A stretch of DNA of 64,000 nucleotides from an uncultured Planctomycetales bacterium (GTDB lineage: Bacteria > Omnitrophota > Gorgyraeia > Zapsychrales > JAHFFX01): assembly GCA_964464475.1 (NCBI GenBank), contig CAYXGG010000001.1:87174-151173 (forward strand), read 5' to 3'. A program made the translations under genes and the position numbers. Shown piece after piece: positions 5,491 through 50,575 of the stretch (position 1 is the first letter of the stretch; the number at the start of each line of letters is the position of its first letter). A model generated the notes under the pieces. That model searched no databases. It had not been told where the DNA came from and saw nothing but the letters and a program-made list of their open reading frames with translations.

Positions 5491-5527
5491 AAAAAGCCCT
5501 CAATAAAATATTTATTGAGGGCTTTTT
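5491..5527. terminator. Bidirectional intrinsic terminator between the cupin gene and rpoN
   Basis: AAAAAGCCCTCAATAAA-ATAT-TTATTGAGGGCTTTTT forms a perfect 14-bp stem flanked by A/T runs on both sides. Confidence 0.7.
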
Positions 5528-6893
5528 ATTCTTTACGTAAATGTGATGGCAGTATGTTTAATTGCTGACGGTATTTGCTGATGGTTCGGCGGGCGATCGG
5601 CATCCCCTTTTGAGTAAAGCAATCTTGAATTTCCTGATCAGAAAGGGGGGAATGTTTATTTTCAGCGTCTATAAGATCTTTGATTTCTTCTTTAATGCCG
5701 CGACTAGATACTGTTTCGTTATTCCCATCAGATAACGCTTGAGAAAAGAAATATTTTAAAGCAACCGTCCCCAAAGGAGATTCAACGAATTTCCCTTGGA
5801 TAGCTCGACTGATGGTGGATTCATTGCGGTTGATGGCCTCAGCTACATCTTTTAGTGTCATTGGAATAATCGCTGTAGCAGTTCCTTCAAAGAAATCTTT
5901 TTGTTTCTCCAAGATGTATAGCGCGATTTGCTGAATAGTGTTCCCGCGTTGATCAACGCTTTTGATGAAGTTTATCGCGTCTTTAATTTTTTCCTTAATG
6001 AACTCACGTTCATCAGATTTGAGATTCTTATTTTCTAGCATTCTTTGATAAGTCATGTTTACTCTTAATTGGGGAATGCCATCTCGGCAGACGGAGACGC
6101 TGTAGCCTTGAAGGGGGTCCTTTTTGATAATCACGTCTGGTTTGATGTAGATGTTTGCGCTGAGGGGTCGAAAGTTTCTGGCGGGTTTAGGTTCTAAATT
6201 AGCAATCTTTTGGGCAGCTTCCTTGACCGAATCAATATTGACGCCCAGTTTGCGGGCAATATCTGAGAATTTTTTGCGACAAAGTTCATCAAAGCACTCT
6301 GTAATAATACGAGTCGCCAGGTCATGGTGTCCGCTAAAGCGAACCCGAACTTGAATCAATAAGCTTTCTTTGAGGTCTCGAGCGGCAATCCCGATAGGTT
6401 CAAAATGTTGAATAACCTCGAGCACATGCTTAACCAGATTTAGTTGTTCCGGGCAAAGCGACTCTGCGATTTCCTCGCAGGAAATGTTTAAGAAGCCGTC
6501 TTCGTTTAGATTCCCAATGATGGCTTCTCCAATTTTGAGTTGCAGAGGATCATTGAGCTCAAATTTTAGTTGTTCCAAAAGATTTTCTTCCAGGGAAAGT
6601 TTCTTGGTTAAGGGCTTTTCTTCCCATTTTTCATCATCGCTGAGGTATTCTTGTTTTTGTAGTTTAAGTTTTTCCGATTGACGCAGGGCGAATGCTTTTA
6701 ACTCAGCATCATTAATTTCAGGGCTCGGGAGAGGCGAGTTTTCTTCTATTTCCAAGAGGGGATTGTTTTGAAGTTCATGATCAATGGCTTGTGCTAATTC
6801 AGTCAGCGGTAGCTGCAAAACAGCTACTGATTGCTGAAGTAAAGGCGCCATGATTCCTTTTTGGATTTGTTTTGGAGATAAGTTAACTTTCAC
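5526..6893 (-). CDS. rpoN: RNA polymerase sigma-54 factor
   Basis: Region I is glutamine/leucine-rich (MAPLLQQSVAVLQLPLTELAQAI...NPLLE). The C-terminal RpoN box ARRTISKYR and the helix-turn-helix are present. Confidence 0.9.
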   Translation of the reverse strand: MKVNLSPKQIQKGIMAPLLQQSVAVLQLPLTELAQAIDHELQNNPLLEIEENSPLPSPEINDAELKAFALRQSEKLKLQKQEYLSDDEKWEEKPLTKKLSLEENLLEQLKFELNDPLQLKIGEAIIGNLNEDGFLNISCEEIAESLCPEQLNLVKHVLEVIQHFEPIGIAARDLKESLLIQVRVRFSGHHDLATRIITECFDELCRKKFSDIARKLGVNIDSVKEAAQKIANLEPKPARNFRPLSANIYIKPDVIIKKDPLQGYSVSVCRDGIPQLRVNMTYQRMLENKNLKSDEREFIKEKIKDAINFIKSVDQRGNTIQQIALYILEKQKDFFEGTATAIIPMTLKDVAEAINRNESTISRAIQGKFVESPLGTVALKYFFSQALSDGNNETVSSRGIKEEIKDLIDAENKHSPLSDQEIQDCFTQKGMPIARRTISKYRQQLNILPSHLRKE

Positions 6894-46525: not shown

Positions 46526-47287
46526 ATGGGTTCTAATCATTCAGTCGTATTGATGTATCATGCCGTGATTCGGGACAAATACCAAATTCCTCCCGATCGC
46601 GAAGATGGCGCTGAGCTTTATGATTTAGCGGTAGAAGCTTTTGCGGACCATTTAAGGCAAATTAAAGCAGAAGGAATTTCGGTCATCAAAGCCGAAGATT
46701 TGAAGAAGGAGGAGGGGGTCATCATCACGTTTGATGATGGCGAAATGAATAATTATACTGAGGCTTTCCCGCTACTAAAGCAATTTGGGTTCCCCGGTTA
46801 TTTTTTCATCACTGCCGATCGCATAGGTAAGTCAGGTTACATGGACTGGCCCCAGCTTAAAGAATTATGCCAGGCTGGAATGGTGATTGGTTCCCATGGT
46901 CTCACCCACCGTGTCCTTACTTCATTAAATCCATCCGAGCTTCATCAAGAGCTCTTTGAGTCAAAACGCATTTTAGAGGCCCATTTGGGGCAAATGGTTG
47001 ATTCTTTTTCGGTGCCTAGGGGTTTTGTTTCTCTATTAGTAGCTGAGCAAGCCAGGCAGGCCGGTTATAGGCATATTTTCATTTCTGGAAGCGGTCCCAA
47101 GAATTGGGGAAATCTGATAGCGCGAACGGCCGTAAAGTCAAATTGGACTCAGCAAAGATTTTCTTTGGCTTTAATTGGTAAGGTACCTTTGCAAGAACAG
47201 ATTTTTGAAGGGGTTAAAGCTGCTAGTAAACGCTTTCTGGGGCAAGCTGGATATAATTCGTTAAGATCAAAATTGTTGGGTAAATAA
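46526..47287 (+). CDS. Polysaccharide deacetylase (NodB homology, PEP-CTERM-locus type)
   Basis: TFDDG, HGLTHR and the HSVLMYHAV motifs. Confidence 0.75.
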   Translation: MGSNHSVVLMYHAVIRDKYQIPPDREDGAELYDLAVEAFADHLRQIKAEGISVIKAEDLKKEEGVIITFDDGEMNNYTEAFPLLKQFGFPGYFFITADRIGKSGYMDWPQLKELCQAGMVIGSHGLTHRVLTSLNPSELHQELFESKRILEAHLGQMVDSFSVPRGFVSLLVAEQARQAGYRHIFISGSGPKNWGNLIARTAVKSNWTQQRFSLALIGKVPLQEQIFEGVKAASKRFLGQAGYNSLRSKLLGK

Positions 47288-47369
47288 AAGGAATAATTAA
47301 TTCTCTAACTAATTGCAGTAAATAAACTTATAATTCTGTTAGAGTTTTTAGTTATTTTCTGCTGGGGAT

Positions 47370-47397
47370 TTGACAACTGGAGGAGGGGTGCTATACT
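47370..47397 (+). promoter_or_regulatory. Sigma-70 promoter driving the riboswitch leader
   Basis: TTGACA-N16-TATACT. Confidence 0.5.
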
Positions 47398-47439
47398 TTC
47401 GGCTGAAAGAAGTTCTCGATCTTTAAATAGCTGACTGAT

Positions 47440-47580
47440 ACTAGTAAACCATTCGGAAGAGTGGGACACAAAGCTAACCATGCTTTCTAGAGGTTCTTAA
47501 GGAAGCAGGTGCTCCAGTCCGTAGATGGCTGGAGTAGGGCCTAACCCCGTGTTGTGGATGTTGCCGGGCAGGTTGCCAGT
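47440..47580 (+). promoter_or_regulatory. Candidate c-di-GMP-I (GEMM) riboswitch aptamer
   Basis: GUAAACCAUUCGGAAGAGUGGGACACAAAGC reproduces the GEMM junction elements. These are the G-CAAA junction, a P2 hairpin CCAUUC-GGAA-GAGUGG with a GNRA loop, and GAC-ACAAAGC. It is followed by a CUCCAG...CUGGAGUAGG hairpin and a CCUAACC receptor-like element. From memory it closely resembles V. cholerae Vc2 (CAAACCAUUCGAAAGAGUGGGACGCAAAGCC). Confidence 0.45.
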
Positions 47581-47641
47581 TGCCAAAGCAGAGATAAGAT
47601 CGGTTAAATTAGCCGTTGTTAAGCTTTTAACTGATAATTGA

Positions 47642-47690
47642 CCTATTCTCAAAGGCGTGTCCATGTTCCGAGAGTAGGTTTTTTTATTTT
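47642..47690 (+). terminator. Intrinsic terminator (riboswitch expression platform)
   Basis: CCTATTCTC-19 nt-GAGAGTAGG followed by TTTTTTTATTTT, 54 bp before the ATG of the beta-helix gene. Confidence 0.55.
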
Positions 47691-47743
47691 ATGAGAAAAA
47701 ATTTCATCTATTCATTATCCAGGTTTCAGAAAGGGGTGCAACG

Positions 47744-50575
47744 ATGAGAAAAAACACAATAACAGTTCTTTTTCTGATGGGCTTTTGTTGGGGAGTGTCA
47801 GTTCCCTTAACGGAAGCGGCAACCTATTTTGTTCGACCAGATGGGGGTAACGCCACTCAGTGTACTGGTTTGAATGATGCCGCGTATCCAGGCAGCGGTA
47901 CCGCTCAAGCCTGTGCTTTAAATCACCCCTTTTGGGTGCTAGCTCCCAAGGGAAATAACCCATCCAAAATGCGAGGAGGGGATACCTTAATTATTGATGG
48001 TTCAAACAAAGCTCAATACATGATGGGTTGGGGAGCCCCCAATATTAACGATACGAGCATTTGTTATTCTGCATGGCCATGGGATTGTACGATGCGTCCG
48101 ATCCCTTCAGGTCCTGATCCGGCTCATCCTACCAGGATTTTGGGTAAGGGATGGGACACGGGTTGCGCCAATCCTCCTCAATTATGGGGTAAAGAAAAAG
48201 CATGGCATATTCTGACCTTGGCTGGAAGTAATAACGTAGAGGTCCAATGCTTGGAAATTACTGACCATGACCAGTGTCAATACTTGGGGCCTAATGGTTG
48301 TAATAACAGTAATGCCCCTTTTGGAAACTATGCGGTGATGGGTATTTTTGCCCAAGATAGTAATAATGTATTACTGAAGAATTTAAATATTCATGGTCTG
48401 CACACGGGTATAAAAGCAGGAAGAATTAAAGATTGGACCGTGGACAACACTAAAATCGTAGGGAACTCTTTTGTTGGCTGGAATGGTGATTTAGGCGGTG
48501 GAGTTAGTTCATCAAATTCAGGAACAATCACTTTTAATAAGAGTGTGATTGCTTATAGCGGTTGCGGTGAAACTTATCCGGGCAATCAACCGTATAACTG
48601 CTATAGCCAGGATCAAGGTGGCTATGGTGACGGTTTCGGAACAGAGAAAACGGGCGGAAACTGGATATTTAACAATGTGGATTTTAGCCATAATGTTTCC
48701 GATGGTTTAGATCTTCTTTATCATGATGGCAATGGTTCAATAACCATTAAACGGTCTCGATTTGAGGGCAATGCAGGAAACCAAGTTAAAACGGCGGGAA
48801 GTGCTGTAATAGAGAATTCGCTGTTGGTTGGAAATTGTGGTTACTTTAAAGATAAAGCATTCACTTATTCGGTCGGTGGTTTTAACCATTGTCGTGCCGC
48901 AGGCTCGACCTTAGCCGCTTTATTTTTCACCGGGAGCAAAGTCAGCTTGATGAATTCAACTCTTACCGGAAATGGTGACTCATTGATTATTTCTTCAGGA
49001 TCTACCTGTAATGGGACAGAATCCTTTACCTCAAGAAATAATATTATACTCGGTGGCACGGAATTCAACGATGGGGCCGACCTTAGCTCGTTGTATTATG
49101 CAACTGGAGCTATGGGAAATGGTGATGGGCCATGTGGAGCTGTTCAATTTGTGGACGCAGGTTCTGTATATTGGAACATAAAGAACCAAGTCAATGTTTG
49201 TGCCCAAAGACCGGGTTCTAAATGTGCTGATCCAAAATTTATTGGTCCAGTTGTTAAATATTTTTCTGGTGATGCTTATAATTTAGCTTTGAACGCAGAT
49301 AGTCCTGCGCGTAGTTTTGCCCAGGAATTAACTGGTATGTCGACGTTGGATTATAATAATTTTGACCGTGGATCAGATTGGGATTCGGGTGCTCTGGAAT
49401 ATGGCTCTGTATCTACCGTTGCGGCCGCCAGTATCTGTGGGAATAAATTAGTCGAGTATCCTGAGCAGTGTGATGACGGTAATTTAGTCAACGGTGATGG
49501 ATGTAATGCCTCATGCATCATTGAATCGCCTTCTGTCCCAGTGTGTGGTAATAAGGTTAAAGAAGGATCTGAACAATGTGATGACGGTAATCTAACGAAT
49601 GGCGATGGATGTAATAATGTTTGTCAAATCGAAGTGGCATCGCCGGTTTGTGGAAACGGTAAATTAGAGAGTTCAGAGCAGTGTGATGACGGCAACGTTT
49701 TAAATAATGATGGATGTAGCAGCGTTTGCCAGGTAGAGATTCTATCTGTTTGCGGTAACGCGAAGCTTGAGAGTGGTGAGCAATGCGATGATGGTAATAA
49801 GGTAAGTGGTGATGGGTGCTCTAGTTCTTGTGTAAGAGAGTTACCCATTTGCGGAAATGCTAAGTTGGAAGGTTCAGAGCAGTGTGACGATGGTAACTTA
49901 ATTAGCGGAGATGGGTGCTCTAGTTCTTGTGTGAAAGAGCTGCCGGTCTGTGGTAACGCGAAGCTCGAGAGTGGTGAGCAGTGCGATGATGGAAATAACA
50001 CCAATAATGATGGTTGCTCAAGCTCTTGTTTAAAAGAGAGTTTACCAGTCTGCGGAAATGGCATTAAAGAAGGAACCGAGGTTTGTGACGACGGCAACCT
50101 AGTGAGTAATGATGGCTGTAATAGCATTTGCAAAGCGGAATGGTGTGGTAACGGTATTAAAGAAGGACCGGAGCAATGCGATGATGGCAACTGGATTAAT
50201 CGGGATGGTTGCAGCGCATTGTGTATTTTGGAAAGTGTTAAACCAGTTTGCGGAAATGGAAAAAAAGAAGGAACCGAAGCTTGTGACGATGGAAATTTGG
50301 TGAGTAATGATGGGTGCTCAAGTAGCTGTAGTATTGAGCAAACACCTATCCCTGTGTGCGGAAATGAAAAGATAGAATCCCCTGAAACGTGCGATGATGG
50401 TAATAGAACTAGTGGGGATGGATGTAGCAGCAGTTGCCAAAAAGAGGTGGTAACGACCAGGCCGGTTTGTGGTAACGGTAAGTTGGAAGGTTCAGAACAG
50501 TGCGATGATGGTAACCGAGTCAGCGGTGACGGATGTAACCGCTATTGCAAAAAGGAGAGAATAAGAACCAGGTAA
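47744..50575 (+). CDS. Secreted 943-aa protein: N-terminal right-handed parallel beta-helix (pectate-lyase-like) domain plus 13 tandem cysteine-rich repeats
   Basis: Signal peptide (MRKNTITVLFLMGFCWGVSVPLTEA). Asparagine/glycine-rich beta-helix rungs with NNV repeats. About 565 aa of CGNxKxExxEQCDDGNxxxGDGCxxxC repeats (Myxococcus cysteine-rich repeat type). No PEP-CTERM tail. Confidence 0.8.
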   Translation: MRKNTITVLFLMGFCWGVSVPLTEAATYFVRPDGGNATQCTGLNDAAYPGSGTAQACALNHPFWVLAPKGNNPSKMRGGDTLIIDGSNKAQYMMGWGAPNINDTSICYSAWPWDCTMRPIPSGPDPAHPTRILGKGWDTGCANPPQLWGKEKAWHILTLAGSNNVEVQCLEITDHDQCQYLGPNGCNNSNAPFGNYAVMGIFAQDSNNVLLKNLNIHGLHTGIKAGRIKDWTVDNTKIVGNSFVGWNGDLGGGVSSSNSGTITFNKSVIAYSGCGETYPGNQPYNCYSQDQGGYGDGFGTEKTGGNWIFNNVDFSHNVSDGLDLLYHDGNGSITIKRSRFEGNAGNQVKTAGSAVIENSLLVGNCGYFKDKAFTYSVGGFNHCRAAGSTLAALFFTGSKVSLMNSTLTGNGDSLIISSGSTCNGTESFTSRNNIILGGTEFNDGADLSSLYYATGAMGNGDGPCGAVQFVDAGSVYWNIKNQVNVCAQRPGSKCADPKFIGPVVKYFSGDAYNLALNADSPARSFAQELTGMSTLDYNNFDRGSDWDSGALEYGSVSTVAAASICGNKLVEYPEQCDDGNLVNGDGCNASCIIESPSVPVCGNKVKEGSEQCDDGNLTNGDGCNNVCQIEVASPVCGNGKLESSEQCDDGNVLNNDGCSSVCQVEILSVCGNAKLESGEQCDDGNKVSGDGCSSSCVRELPICGNAKLEGSEQCDDGNLISGDGCSSSCVKELPVCGNAKLESGEQCDDGNNTNNDGCSSSCLKESLPVCGNGIKEGTEVCDDGNLVSNDGCNSICKAEWCGNGIKEGPEQCDDGNWINRDGCSALCILESVKPVCGNGKKEGTEACDDGNLVSNDGCSSSCSIEQTPIPVCGNEKIESPETCDDGNRTSGDGCSSSCQKEVVTTRPVCGNGKLEGSEQCDDGNRVSGDGCNRYCKKERIRTR
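49438..50565 (+). repeat. Thirteen imperfect tandem DNA repeats (about 114-120 bp) encoding the cysteine-rich modules
   Basis: Near-identical units recur, e.g. ggtaacgcgaagctYgagagtggtgagcaRtgcgatgatgg at about 49747 and 49955, and gatgggtgctctagttcttgtgt at 49811 and 49911. Confidence 0.85.

Follow-up and report, generated by a model that had tools for sequence, protein, structure and literature searches.

In a 64-kb window (the whole stretch of DNA analysed here) from contig CAYXGG010000001.1 of an uncultured bacterium that apparently belongs to the Omnitrophota, the leader of a gene for a 943-aa secreted protein carries an RNA aptamer which, judged from its sequence, is an orthologous but derived copy of the class-I cyclic di-GMP (c-di-GMP) riboswitch, GEMM-I. 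This leader comprises the 456 bp of intergenic DNA (47288-47743) that separate a polysaccharide deacetylase gene (46526-47287) from the open reading frame (ORF) of the 943-aa protein. GEMM-I is among the best-studied riboswitch classes, and the discovery of one more member is ordinary in itself. The window instance is a variant within the known class, with a score below the Rfam threshold, an insertion that enlarges it and an altered binding pocket. The reading that we favour, held with somewhat better than even confidence, is that of a derived GEMM-I orthologue acting via transcription termination.

That the aptamer is a GEMM-I homologue can be regarded as nearly certain from the comparisons that follow. 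The Rfam covariance model of the class (RF01051, c-di-GMP-I) matches positions 47433-47587 over its full length (model positions 1-87) with 32.6 bits and an E-value of 1.2e-4 in a search of 481 nt (47280-47760), which corresponds to an E-value of about 0.02 if scaled to the whole window. The gathering score of the family is 35 bits, and a default Rfam scan of the whole 64-kb window at the gathering threshold returned no match to any family. The score falls below the cut-off because 101 nt replace the 33-nt second hairpin of the model. A covariance model of the clade, built from 12 orthologous aptamers, matches 47433-47597 with 35.3 bits (E ~1e-7 in 551 kb). An initial annotation, made by inspection of the DNA, had proposed a class-I (GEMM-I) cyclic-dinucleotide aptamer at this place, and the RF01051 match, the clade model and the orthologous leaders bear it out. 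The Rfam search that it had suggested gave a divided answer, with an RF01051 match that stays under the gathering score and no match to the c-di-GMP-II model (RF01786) at E-values up to 10 in 47280-47760, on which ground a c-di-GMP-II identity was rejected.

The homology is secure because orthologous aptamers occupy related leaders that share the promoter, the terminator and the gene that follows. A regular expression and a covariance model from 12 leaders identified 23 orthologous aptamers in 22 leaders, all before homologous genes. Further leaders were obtained via a metagenome scan and look-ups of more homologues of the downstream protein, which has hundreds of them, several named Candidatus Omnitrophica, the basis of the assignment to the Omnitrophota; the loci are numbered here with the prefix L, and L001-L013, which matched only the first DUF4215 repeat of the query, were not used. 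Locus L014 encodes a 68%-identical homologue of the downstream protein and is syntenic over at least 11 genes, in the order glycosyltransferase, GH123-like protein, hypothetical protein, deacetylase, leader, beta-helix protein, two pseudopilins, two hypothetical proteins, GT2 glycosyltransferase, exosortase EpsH and EpsI. Its leader holds a canonical c-di-GMP-I aptamer (72.2 bits, E 2.6e-14), together with the same promoter and terminator sequence as in the window. The aptamer of L100 is near-identical to that of the window (UGAUAAAGGUAAACCACUCGGAAGAGUGGGACACAAAGCUAAAGGGCCUAAACCCGUG...), but lacks the insertion and has the canonical pocket. It could be argued from the score under the Rfam gathering threshold that the resemblance arose by chance, in a leader that merely holds hairpins and a terminator and has no riboswitch ancestry. 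This is effectively refuted by synteny with a locus bearing a 72-bit canonical aptamer, by the base-by-base alignment to L100 and by the 23 orthologous aptamers, and we regard it as scarcely conceivable.

The secondary structure used here is that of GEMM-I, supplied by hand and then verified by pair counts across the 12 insertion-free orthologues, where 99.5% of the cells are paired and seven pairs show double changes, an outcome reached by none of 500 shuffles. A structure computed for the orthologues with RNAalifold was rejected, as it predicted a wrong GGUAA/UUGCC helix. The core comparison covers 58 columns anchored by regular expressions in 21 aptamers (the window and 20 others), MAFFT having misaligned the insertion-bearing aptamers. 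Within the orthologues, CCAGUUGCC is invariant or nearly so.

In the window, the aptamer extends from about 47431 to 47591 on the plus strand, which also carries all the elements described below, and its 5' half is the string GUAAACCAUUCGGAAGAGUGGGACACAAAGC at 47444-47474. The closing helix P1 is excluded from the RF01051 model, and the geometry of P1 and of the junction J1/2 was modelled on the Geobacter riboswitch Gs1761, in which J1/2 has 6 nt and the top P1 pair is formed from the C after the ligand-pairing C (PMC6274999). The 5' strand of the putative P1 (47431-47437) is split by an internal loop (AC/AAG) into 3 bp and 2 bp, P1b being CUG 47431-47433 with CAG 47589-47591 and P1a being U47436-G47437 with C47584-A47585. 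J1/2 (AUACUA, 47438-47443) brings C47441, U47442 and A47443 to the places of A18, position 19 and G20 in the numbering of Vc2, the GEMM-I riboswitch of Vibrio cholerae. The region 47444-47471 begins with a two-pair helix (G47444-C47469, U47445-A47468) that encloses AAA, the P2 hairpin and GAC (47465-47467), and that is followed by A47470, at the A47 position, and A47471. P2 pairs CCAUUC (47449-47454) with GAGUGG (47459-47464) under the GNRA tetraloop GGAA (47455-47458). The P2 hairpin, the two-pair helix and the AAA and GAC strands are all present, all the pairs are canonical, and these pairs covary in the orthologues.

The second hairpin, P3, starts with AGCU and the bulged A47476 (47472-47476), and its lower stem is completed by AGUU (47578-47581). 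In the upper part (47536-47577), G47537 and G47538 pair with C47577 and C47576, and GCC (47539-47541) pairs with GGU (47571-47573) above a bulge of U47574-G47575, while the 5' strand continues through a receptor-like CCUAAC (47540-47545) into an apical stem CCCG/CGGG (47546-47549/47565-47568). The CCUAAC, which corresponds to CUAA in the Rfam consensus, is what we take to be the GNRA tetraloop receptor. The stems AGCU/AGUU, GG/CC and GCC/GGU are canonical throughout, and the departures from the family are the UG bulge and a 58-nt insertion after the bulged A. GEMM-I aptamers also contain a cross-helix pair, C44-G83. The 3' end (47578-47591) consists of AGUU, the junction J1/3 with G47582 and, at the C92 position, C47583, then C47584-A47585 and, at 47589-47591, CAG, with AGUUGCCAAA aligned to the Rfam consensus gGcUgCCgaa. 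The aptamer closes only with AGUUGCC (47578-47584) and the 3' strand of P1 (to 47591), and nothing in 47476-47591 is expression platform. In the initial annotation, a CUCCAG...CUGGAG hairpin and a CCUAACC element had been read as such a platform, an assignment that does not hold: the hairpin is the second one of the P3 insertion and CCUAAC belongs to upper P3. The positions themselves were correct, the 5' half of the aptamer, the CUCCAG hairpin, CCUAAC and the terminator all lying where they had been placed.

A distal extension of the closing helix, P1x, can form between CGAUCUU (47417-47423) and AAGAUCG (47596-47602). Unconstrained minimum free energy (MFE) folding yields it when the transcript ends at 47605-47615, the fold constrained to the native aptamer contains it too, and its counterpart in L100 (CGAUCUU/AGGGUCG) is possible with G-U pairs. 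With the probability of a chance 7-mer complement in the flanks estimated at about 0.04, P1x has modest support as a real helix. A switch between P1x and a hairpin of AUCGGUUAA (47599-47607) with UUAACUGAU (47626-47634) was considered and dropped, as neither state affects the terminator. The native fold costs 4.7 kcal/mol relative to the MFE, in a range of 0.3-4.7 among the orthologues. Plain MFE folding never recovers the short core helices (the two-pair helix and lower and upper P3) in the window; because it misses them in part even in the canonical orthologues, MFE cannot decide the function or the switch direction of the window copy.

Relative to L014 and L100, the insertion occupies 47477-47534 and consists of the hairpins B1 (47477-47510) and B2 (47511-47535, GCUCCAG...CUGGAGU), with U47535 of B2 corresponding to a U, C or A of the orthologues. 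Its predicted structure consists of just these two hairpins, one abutting the other (-26.7 kcal/mol, z = -4.0), and both occur in every predicted fold. In L046, an insertion of 60 nt at the same site also forms two hairpins, at least four of whose stem pairs are changed on both sides relative to the window by our own count; the apical motif UUCUAG..GGUU..GGAAG of B1 is common to both. L022 carries a larger insertion at this P3 site. A second insertion site lies between GAC and ACAAAG, and two abutting hairpins are found there in L029:1589-1733, L030:3-134, L055:1287-1417 and L022:2416-2867, so that large insertions at both sites bring the aptamer of L022 to about 450 nt. Two hairpins are likewise the predicted fold of each insertion in L046, L029, L030 and L055, with z-scores of -4.3 to -5.4. 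In an Rfam scan at E<=0.01, L029, L030 and L022 gave no match and L055 reached only 31 bits, against RF03167. Neither the window nor a set of about 100 loci contained a second copy of the window insertion, and its identification as a repeat or mobile element was rejected on that basis.

In other structured RNAs, a conserved core, whether catalytic or ligand-binding, tolerates structured insertions at the bulges and junctions of helices, and pairs of hairpins create four-way junctions that are able to keep the parent helix coaxially stacked. In the same manner, B1 and B2 would turn P3 of the window aptamer into a four-way junction with a presumed stacking. Paired hairpins at a bulge may allow coaxial stacking of the parent helix to be preserved, and this would account for the pairwise occurrence of the insertions. 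In the part of the literature that was searched, no description of GEMM-I insertions of this kind, or of GEMM-I in Omnitrophota, was found.

The changes in the binding pocket are best seen against what has been established for Vc2. In this aptamer, one guanine of the ligand is recognized at its Hoogsteen edge by G20, the other is paired to C92, and A47 is stacked between the two (PMC6140456; PMC5888326), and A18, which corresponds to A12 of Gs1761, forms a hydrogen bond with the ligand (bioRxiv 10.1101/871194; PMC6274999); the roles of A18, G20, A47 and C92 are taken here from secondary sources. Three changes are private to the window at columns that are invariant in the 20 other aptamers compared, namely A18>C (47441), G20>A (47443) and A>U in the AG bulge of P3 (47574). 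All three are at unpaired positions and two of them (A18, G20) are at ligand-contacting ones, while private changes in other loci are few and are compensatory stem changes. The Rfam alignment places A47443 at model position 11 (consensus G, Vc2 G20) with high posterior probability, and the equivalents of A47 (47470) and C92 (47583) are intact. As a side observation, the mutated junction creates the palindrome ACUAGU within 47434-47445, and MFE folds pair ACUG (47434-47437) with UAGU (47442-47445); this hairpin, absent in the orthologues, would sequester the base at position 20 and the 5' side of the two-pair helix (G47444, U47445).

The initial annotation had also regarded binding specificity as uncertain, on account of two deviating positions (GUAAA for GCAAA, and ACACAAAGC for ACGCAAAGC). 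The two are in fact partners in a single base pair. This pair, formed by model positions 13 and 36, is U-A, the state of the window, in 17 of the 21 aptamers compared, the remainder having C-G, and most of the orthologues with U-A score 80-106 bits with the clade model. Because the change from C-G to U-A is compensatory and present in most orthologues, it has no bearing on specificity. Specificity for c-di-GMP is less certain than had been supposed, for the different reasons of A20, C18 and the U bulge, which the initial annotation had overlooked along with the insertion.

What these substitutions mean for ligand recognition can be considered in the light of natural and engineered variants. 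Vc2 with the G20A mutation binds both c-di-GMP and 3',3'-cGAMP (cyclic GMP-AMP), the former via a protonated adenine (PMC6140456), and natural A20 variants constitute the GEMM-Ib class of cGAMP riboswitches, some of which are bispecific (PMC6140456; PMC5888326). One possibility, then, is that the window copy remains an ordinary c-di-GMP-specific GEMM-I riboswitch with minor deviations, as was initially proposed. The canonical G20/A47/C92 pocket of the orthologues, the assignment of the family to c-di-GMP-I by covariance model and the retention of c-di-GMP binding by G20A Vc2 through the protonated adenine (PMC6140456) speak for it. The window itself, however, has A20, which lets Vc2 accept cGAMP too and marks the natural cGAMP riboswitches, as well as C18, and c-di-GMP specificity is accordingly the less likely and, in our estimate, improbable.

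A switch of specificity offers another explanation, one that we hold to be unlikely but would still take seriously. In its simplest form the copy would have turned to 3',3'-cGAMP in the manner of GEMM-Ib, where the A at the G20 position is the defining feature (PMC6140456; PMC6274999); less likely, it would sense some other dinucleotide or nucleotide signal that fits a pocket of C18, A20 and a U bulge. Cytosine offers the same ring-nitrogen acceptor and exocyclic amino donor as adenine, so that C18 could read the sugar edge of a guanine, and rare pocket variants of other riboswitch classes are reported to sense new ligands. On the other hand, the case concerns one sequence only, which lacks conserved sister copies, and in a simulation of a cGAMP riboswitch the ligand is contacted by A12/A18 (PMC6274999), which is a C in the window. 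No GGDEF or CD-NTase domain was detected among the 35 ORFs scanned in the window. It is a speculative and rather doubtful proposition that the window copy is a naturally re-specified GEMM-I whose pocket responds to 3',3'-cGAMP or another nucleotide second messenger and no longer favours c-di-GMP, and that the two-hairpin expansions at two sites in the aptamers of the clade make up a functional architectural subclass, so far undescribed, wired into the decision between terminator and antiterminator.

As in the orthologues, the aptamer of the window stands between a promoter and a terminator. A sigma-70-type promoter (47370-47397) has its -35 element TTGACA at 47370-47375, a 16-nt spacer with TG and its -10 element TATACT at 47392-47397; it matches 11 of 12 consensus positions in addition to the TG extension, and TTGACA plus an extended -10 of the TGnTAnAnT type are kept in 13 orthologous leaders. 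Transcription would be expected to start at about 47404. The intrinsic terminator (47641-47685), located 50 nt downstream of the aptamer, has a 10-bp stem of ACCUAUUCUC (47641-47650) and GAGAGUAGGU (47670-47679) with a predicted stability of -16.3 kcal/mol, a 19-nt loop that contains GUGUCC (47657-47662) and, directly after the stem, six free Us (47680-47685). The predicted element thus combines a stem-loop containing G and C, an immediate U-run and a position 5' of the regulated ORF, as expected of rho-independent termination, and in predicted folds it forms as soon as it is transcribed; a consensus terminator scan missed it because its loop is 19 nt long. The ribosome-binding site AAAGGGG (47730-47736) precedes the ATG at 47744. 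These results agree with the initial annotation, which had described a TTGACA-N16-TATACT promoter, an intrinsic terminator before the ribosome-binding site and, on the whole, a terminator-based expression platform with its own promoter, before a gene whose homologues are annotated as beta-helix proteins. Outside this unit, just after the stop codon of the deacetylase gene, an inverted repeat CTCTAAC ... GTTAGAG followed by TTTTT (47303-47349) may be a weak terminator that closes the upstream operon before the riboswitch promoter.

The manner in which the aptamer and the terminator would communicate is clearest in the orthologues. Both the 5' strand of the terminator, CCUAUUCU, and its 3' strand, ..AUAGG with the U-run, are conserved in sequence among them. 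The 5' strand, CCUAUUCU(UUGUG), is moreover complementary to the aptamer core ACACAAAGCUAUAGG, and such sequence conservation is unusual for a mere terminator. When the transcript is cut off immediately ahead of the terminator 3' strand, an antiterminator of 9-22 bp is the MFE structure of L014, L015, L018, L019, L020, L021, L033, L095, L098, L099 and one aptamer of L097 (L097a), and in part of L046; in L014 its segments covary (ACGCAAAAC / GUUUUGCGU). Aptamer and terminator can coexist in the orthologues, whereas the antiterminator excludes both. Because the terminator 5' strand complements the aptamer core in most orthologues, ligand should promote termination, and by analogy with the C. difficile riboswitch Cd1 (PMC9262584) the family is predicted to be an OFF switch that terminates transcription on binding of c-di-GMP, a direction on which the initial annotation was silent. 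According to this model, the sigma-70 promoter would start a transcript at about 47404 whose RNA folds into the three-helix GEMM-I aptamer. In the absence of ligand, the antiterminator would form and the operon would be read through, and the ligand would lock the aptamer, the terminator would form and the operon would be shut off.

In the window, the counterpart of the core strand used by the orthologues as competitor would be GGAGUAGG (47531-47538), composed of the 3' strand of B2 and AGG of P3, which can pair with CCUAUUCU at 47642-47649 and may be the antiterminator strand of this copy, although it is not in the MFE here. The same state pairs GGACAC (47464-47469) with GUGUCC in the terminator loop. 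Under constraints, the candidate antiterminator has -67.4 to -69.0 kcal/mol and the native aptamer -64.9 kcal/mol, compared with -76.9 kcal/mol for the free MFE. The candidate state would require B2 to open. In addition, the five to seven bases ahead of AGG repeat the 3' strand of the terminator: GGAGUAGG shares GAGUAGG with that strand, GAGAGUAGG, and L046 has GGGGUAGG in both places; the chance of such mimicry at a fixed position is estimated at about 1/256 in the window and about 1/1024 in L046. The mimicry between insertion and terminator suggests that the platform has been re-tuned rather than abandoned.

Several observations weigh against a functional derived switch in the window. The RF01051 score is 2.4 bits under the gathering score. 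The lower part of P1 has only 3 bp in the window, as against 5 bp in L014 and L100, which have the same two-part layout. The truncated MFE folds of the window and L100 lack the pairing of aptamer core and terminator strand seen in other orthologues, the CUUUGUG element is absent from both and replaced by CAAAGGCGUGUCC, and the candidate antiterminator strand is locked in the stable B2 hairpin in every predicted fold. Finally, the differences from all 20 other aptamers at A18, G20 and the bulge base are also those expected for lost binding, and no second sequence with a CUA junction was found among the relatives.

The main rival explanation is a ligand-blind relic in which binding would have been lost through the changes of AAG to CUA in J1/2 and of A to U in the bulge. 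The aptamer would then be the dead remainder of an ancestral OFF switch, leaving constitutive read-through or fixed attenuation, and promoter, terminator and scaffold would persist since little time has passed. Constitutive expression is easily reached by mutating the pocket of an OFF switch, the window is alone among the 21 compared aptamers in having changed at otherwise invariant unpaired positions, at three of them, and the shortened P1 and the lost CUUUGUG antiterminator element fit as well. Yet the scaffold has kept all its helices intact, together with its GNRA loop and receptor-like motif, and the same is true of A47, C92 and the C and G of the GAC and UG bulges. A strong terminator with 10 bp and a U-run is kept before an intact 943-aa ORF, which implies that escape from termination is still needed; the match between the 3' strand of the inserted hairpin and that of the terminator suggests a re-tuned platform; and the G20A mutant of Vc2 still binds c-di-GMP and cGAMP (PMC6140456). 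We therefore consider the relic possible but clearly the less probable, and lean, if only slightly, towards a window copy that is still a ligand-responsive switch. As such it would probably continue to shut off the operon in response to a cyclic dinucleotide. With A at the G20 position, its pocket would be expected to accept 3',3'-cGAMP and possibly c-di-GMP as well, although A18>C and the A>U change in the bulge would leave its affinity and specificity unpredictable.

The riboswitch of the window is missed by standard annotation because its structured insertion lowers the score below the Rfam cut-off. Relatives with insertions at the second site are missed too, and c-di-GMP regulons in candidate phyla may be under-counted as a consequence. 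The clade shows that paired hairpins at two defined sites are tolerated by the GEMM-I aptamer and may even be of use to it, and it supplies natural test cases for the expansion of a riboswitch core. The window copy represents a natural experiment on specificity as well, with G20>A and two more changes above an operon that is under canonical c-di-GMP control in relatives, and it could reveal either specificity switching or the decay of an OFF switch.

The gene downstream (47744-50575) encodes a secreted protein with an N-terminal domain and 11 DUF4215 repeats rich in cysteine. The label of a right-handed beta-helix for the N-terminal domain comes from the annotation of homologues; Pfam called no beta-helix in the 943-aa protein of the window, and a PDB sequence search with the N-terminal domain found nothing. 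Pseudopilin-like genes follow, and the riboswitch is situated inside a single-strand locus of about 50 kb for exopolysaccharide and the PEP-CTERM/exosortase system, with genes for Poly_export, a chain-length determinant, many glycosyltransferases, deacetylases, exosortase EpsH, EpsI, a sugar transferase, and a histidine kinase with a sigma-54 response regulator. Should the OFF logic be true, c-di-GMP would repress a secreted beta-helix/cysteine-repeat protein and pseudopilin genes within an exopolysaccharide locus of the exosortase (PEP-CTERM) type, a regulatory link in an uncultivated phylum. Shutting the gene off when c-di-GMP is high would make sense if the secreted protein had the hypothetical role of remodelling or degrading matrix polysaccharide.

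Additional observations were made in the related leaders and in the rest of the window. In L097:2100-2440, a single beta-helix gene is preceded by a tandem of two complete GEMM-I units, each an aptamer plus terminator, with the aptamers at 2100-2193 and 2282-2378; the first aptamer has the C-G pair and GGC for GAC, and the 5' strand of its terminator, CCUAUAGCU, is a perfect complement of its own AGCUAUAGG. In L015:2840-3000, L017:1660-1890, L019:2820-2960 and L025:2800-3000, the stretch from the riboswitch terminator to the start codon holds a long hairpin element (CCCC..AATGTTTCGTTTTGTAATGTCAAATAATTCAAAACGAAACAG..GGGG) of about 60-70 nt, present once or twice, that is absent from the window and could be a second regulatory RNA or a repetitive extragenic palindrome (REP)-like repeat. 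Directly 3' of the first beta-helix gene, L096:1-264 and L097:5207-5434 show a second, paralogous one without a riboswitch, the leader of which is conserved between the two loci and has TTGACTATAATG and a long GC-rich hairpin (GCCGATAAGGCAATCG...CGATTGCCTTATCGGC). All the ORFs of the window that were treated as genes are on the plus strand except rpoN (sigma-54; minus strand, 5526-6893), the GC skew is strongly positive throughout, ranging from 0.135 to 0.237 among 4-kb bins with a GC content of 37-47%, and a 705-aa ORF (239-2356) fuses porphobilinogen deaminase, tetrapyrrole methylase and HemD domains.

Among known systems, the window aptamer shares its three-helix architecture with the c-di-GMP-I riboswitches (GEMM-I, RF01051), such as Vc2 of V. 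cholerae and Cd1 of Clostridioides difficile. The core is common to both, AAAC-P2(GNRA)-GAC-pair-AAAGC ... CCAGUUGCC, and the A47 and C92 positions are kept. It differs from them at position 20 (A for G), position 18 (C for A) and the AG bulge of P3 (U for A), and it spans about 160 nt instead of about 90 by virtue of the 58-nt insertion in P3. A further relative to be considered is the c-di-GMP-I-GGC family (RF03167), against which the aptamers of L095, L097, L098, L099 and L100 score best, with 56-62 bits for a cut-off of 59. The G at the A47 position that defines this family is absent, as the window (A47470) and the orthologues have A there and the A of L100 is aligned against the consensus G. 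Membership of the orthologues in RF03167 was consequently rejected on the diagnostic base, the better score reflecting other shared features and not the variant pocket, and automatic annotation could mislabel the aptamers of these five loci as the GGC variant.

The GEMM-Ib riboswitches (Gs1761, Gm0970 and pilM of Geobacter, and the bispecific Cbe 1-2 of C. beijerinckii) have the same fold with an A at the equivalent of Vc2 G20 (A14 of Gs1761), and they keep the C92 and A47 equivalents, as does the window aptamer. With respect to the J1/2 contacts of Gs1761, the equivalent of A11 is present in the window (A47440), whereas that of A12 is C47441. The pilM riboswitch of Geobacter is an ON switch, in contrast to the OFF logic that is predicted for the window family, and all sister aptamers of the window clade have G20, which makes A20 of the window an isolated change and not the mark of a conserved subclass. 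The closest parallel in regulatory design is Cd1, an OFF switch whose complete aptamer is followed downstream by a complete terminator, with an antiterminator in competition for the aptamer core (PMC9262584), the layout found in most orthologues of the window aptamer and the OFF logic predicted for them.

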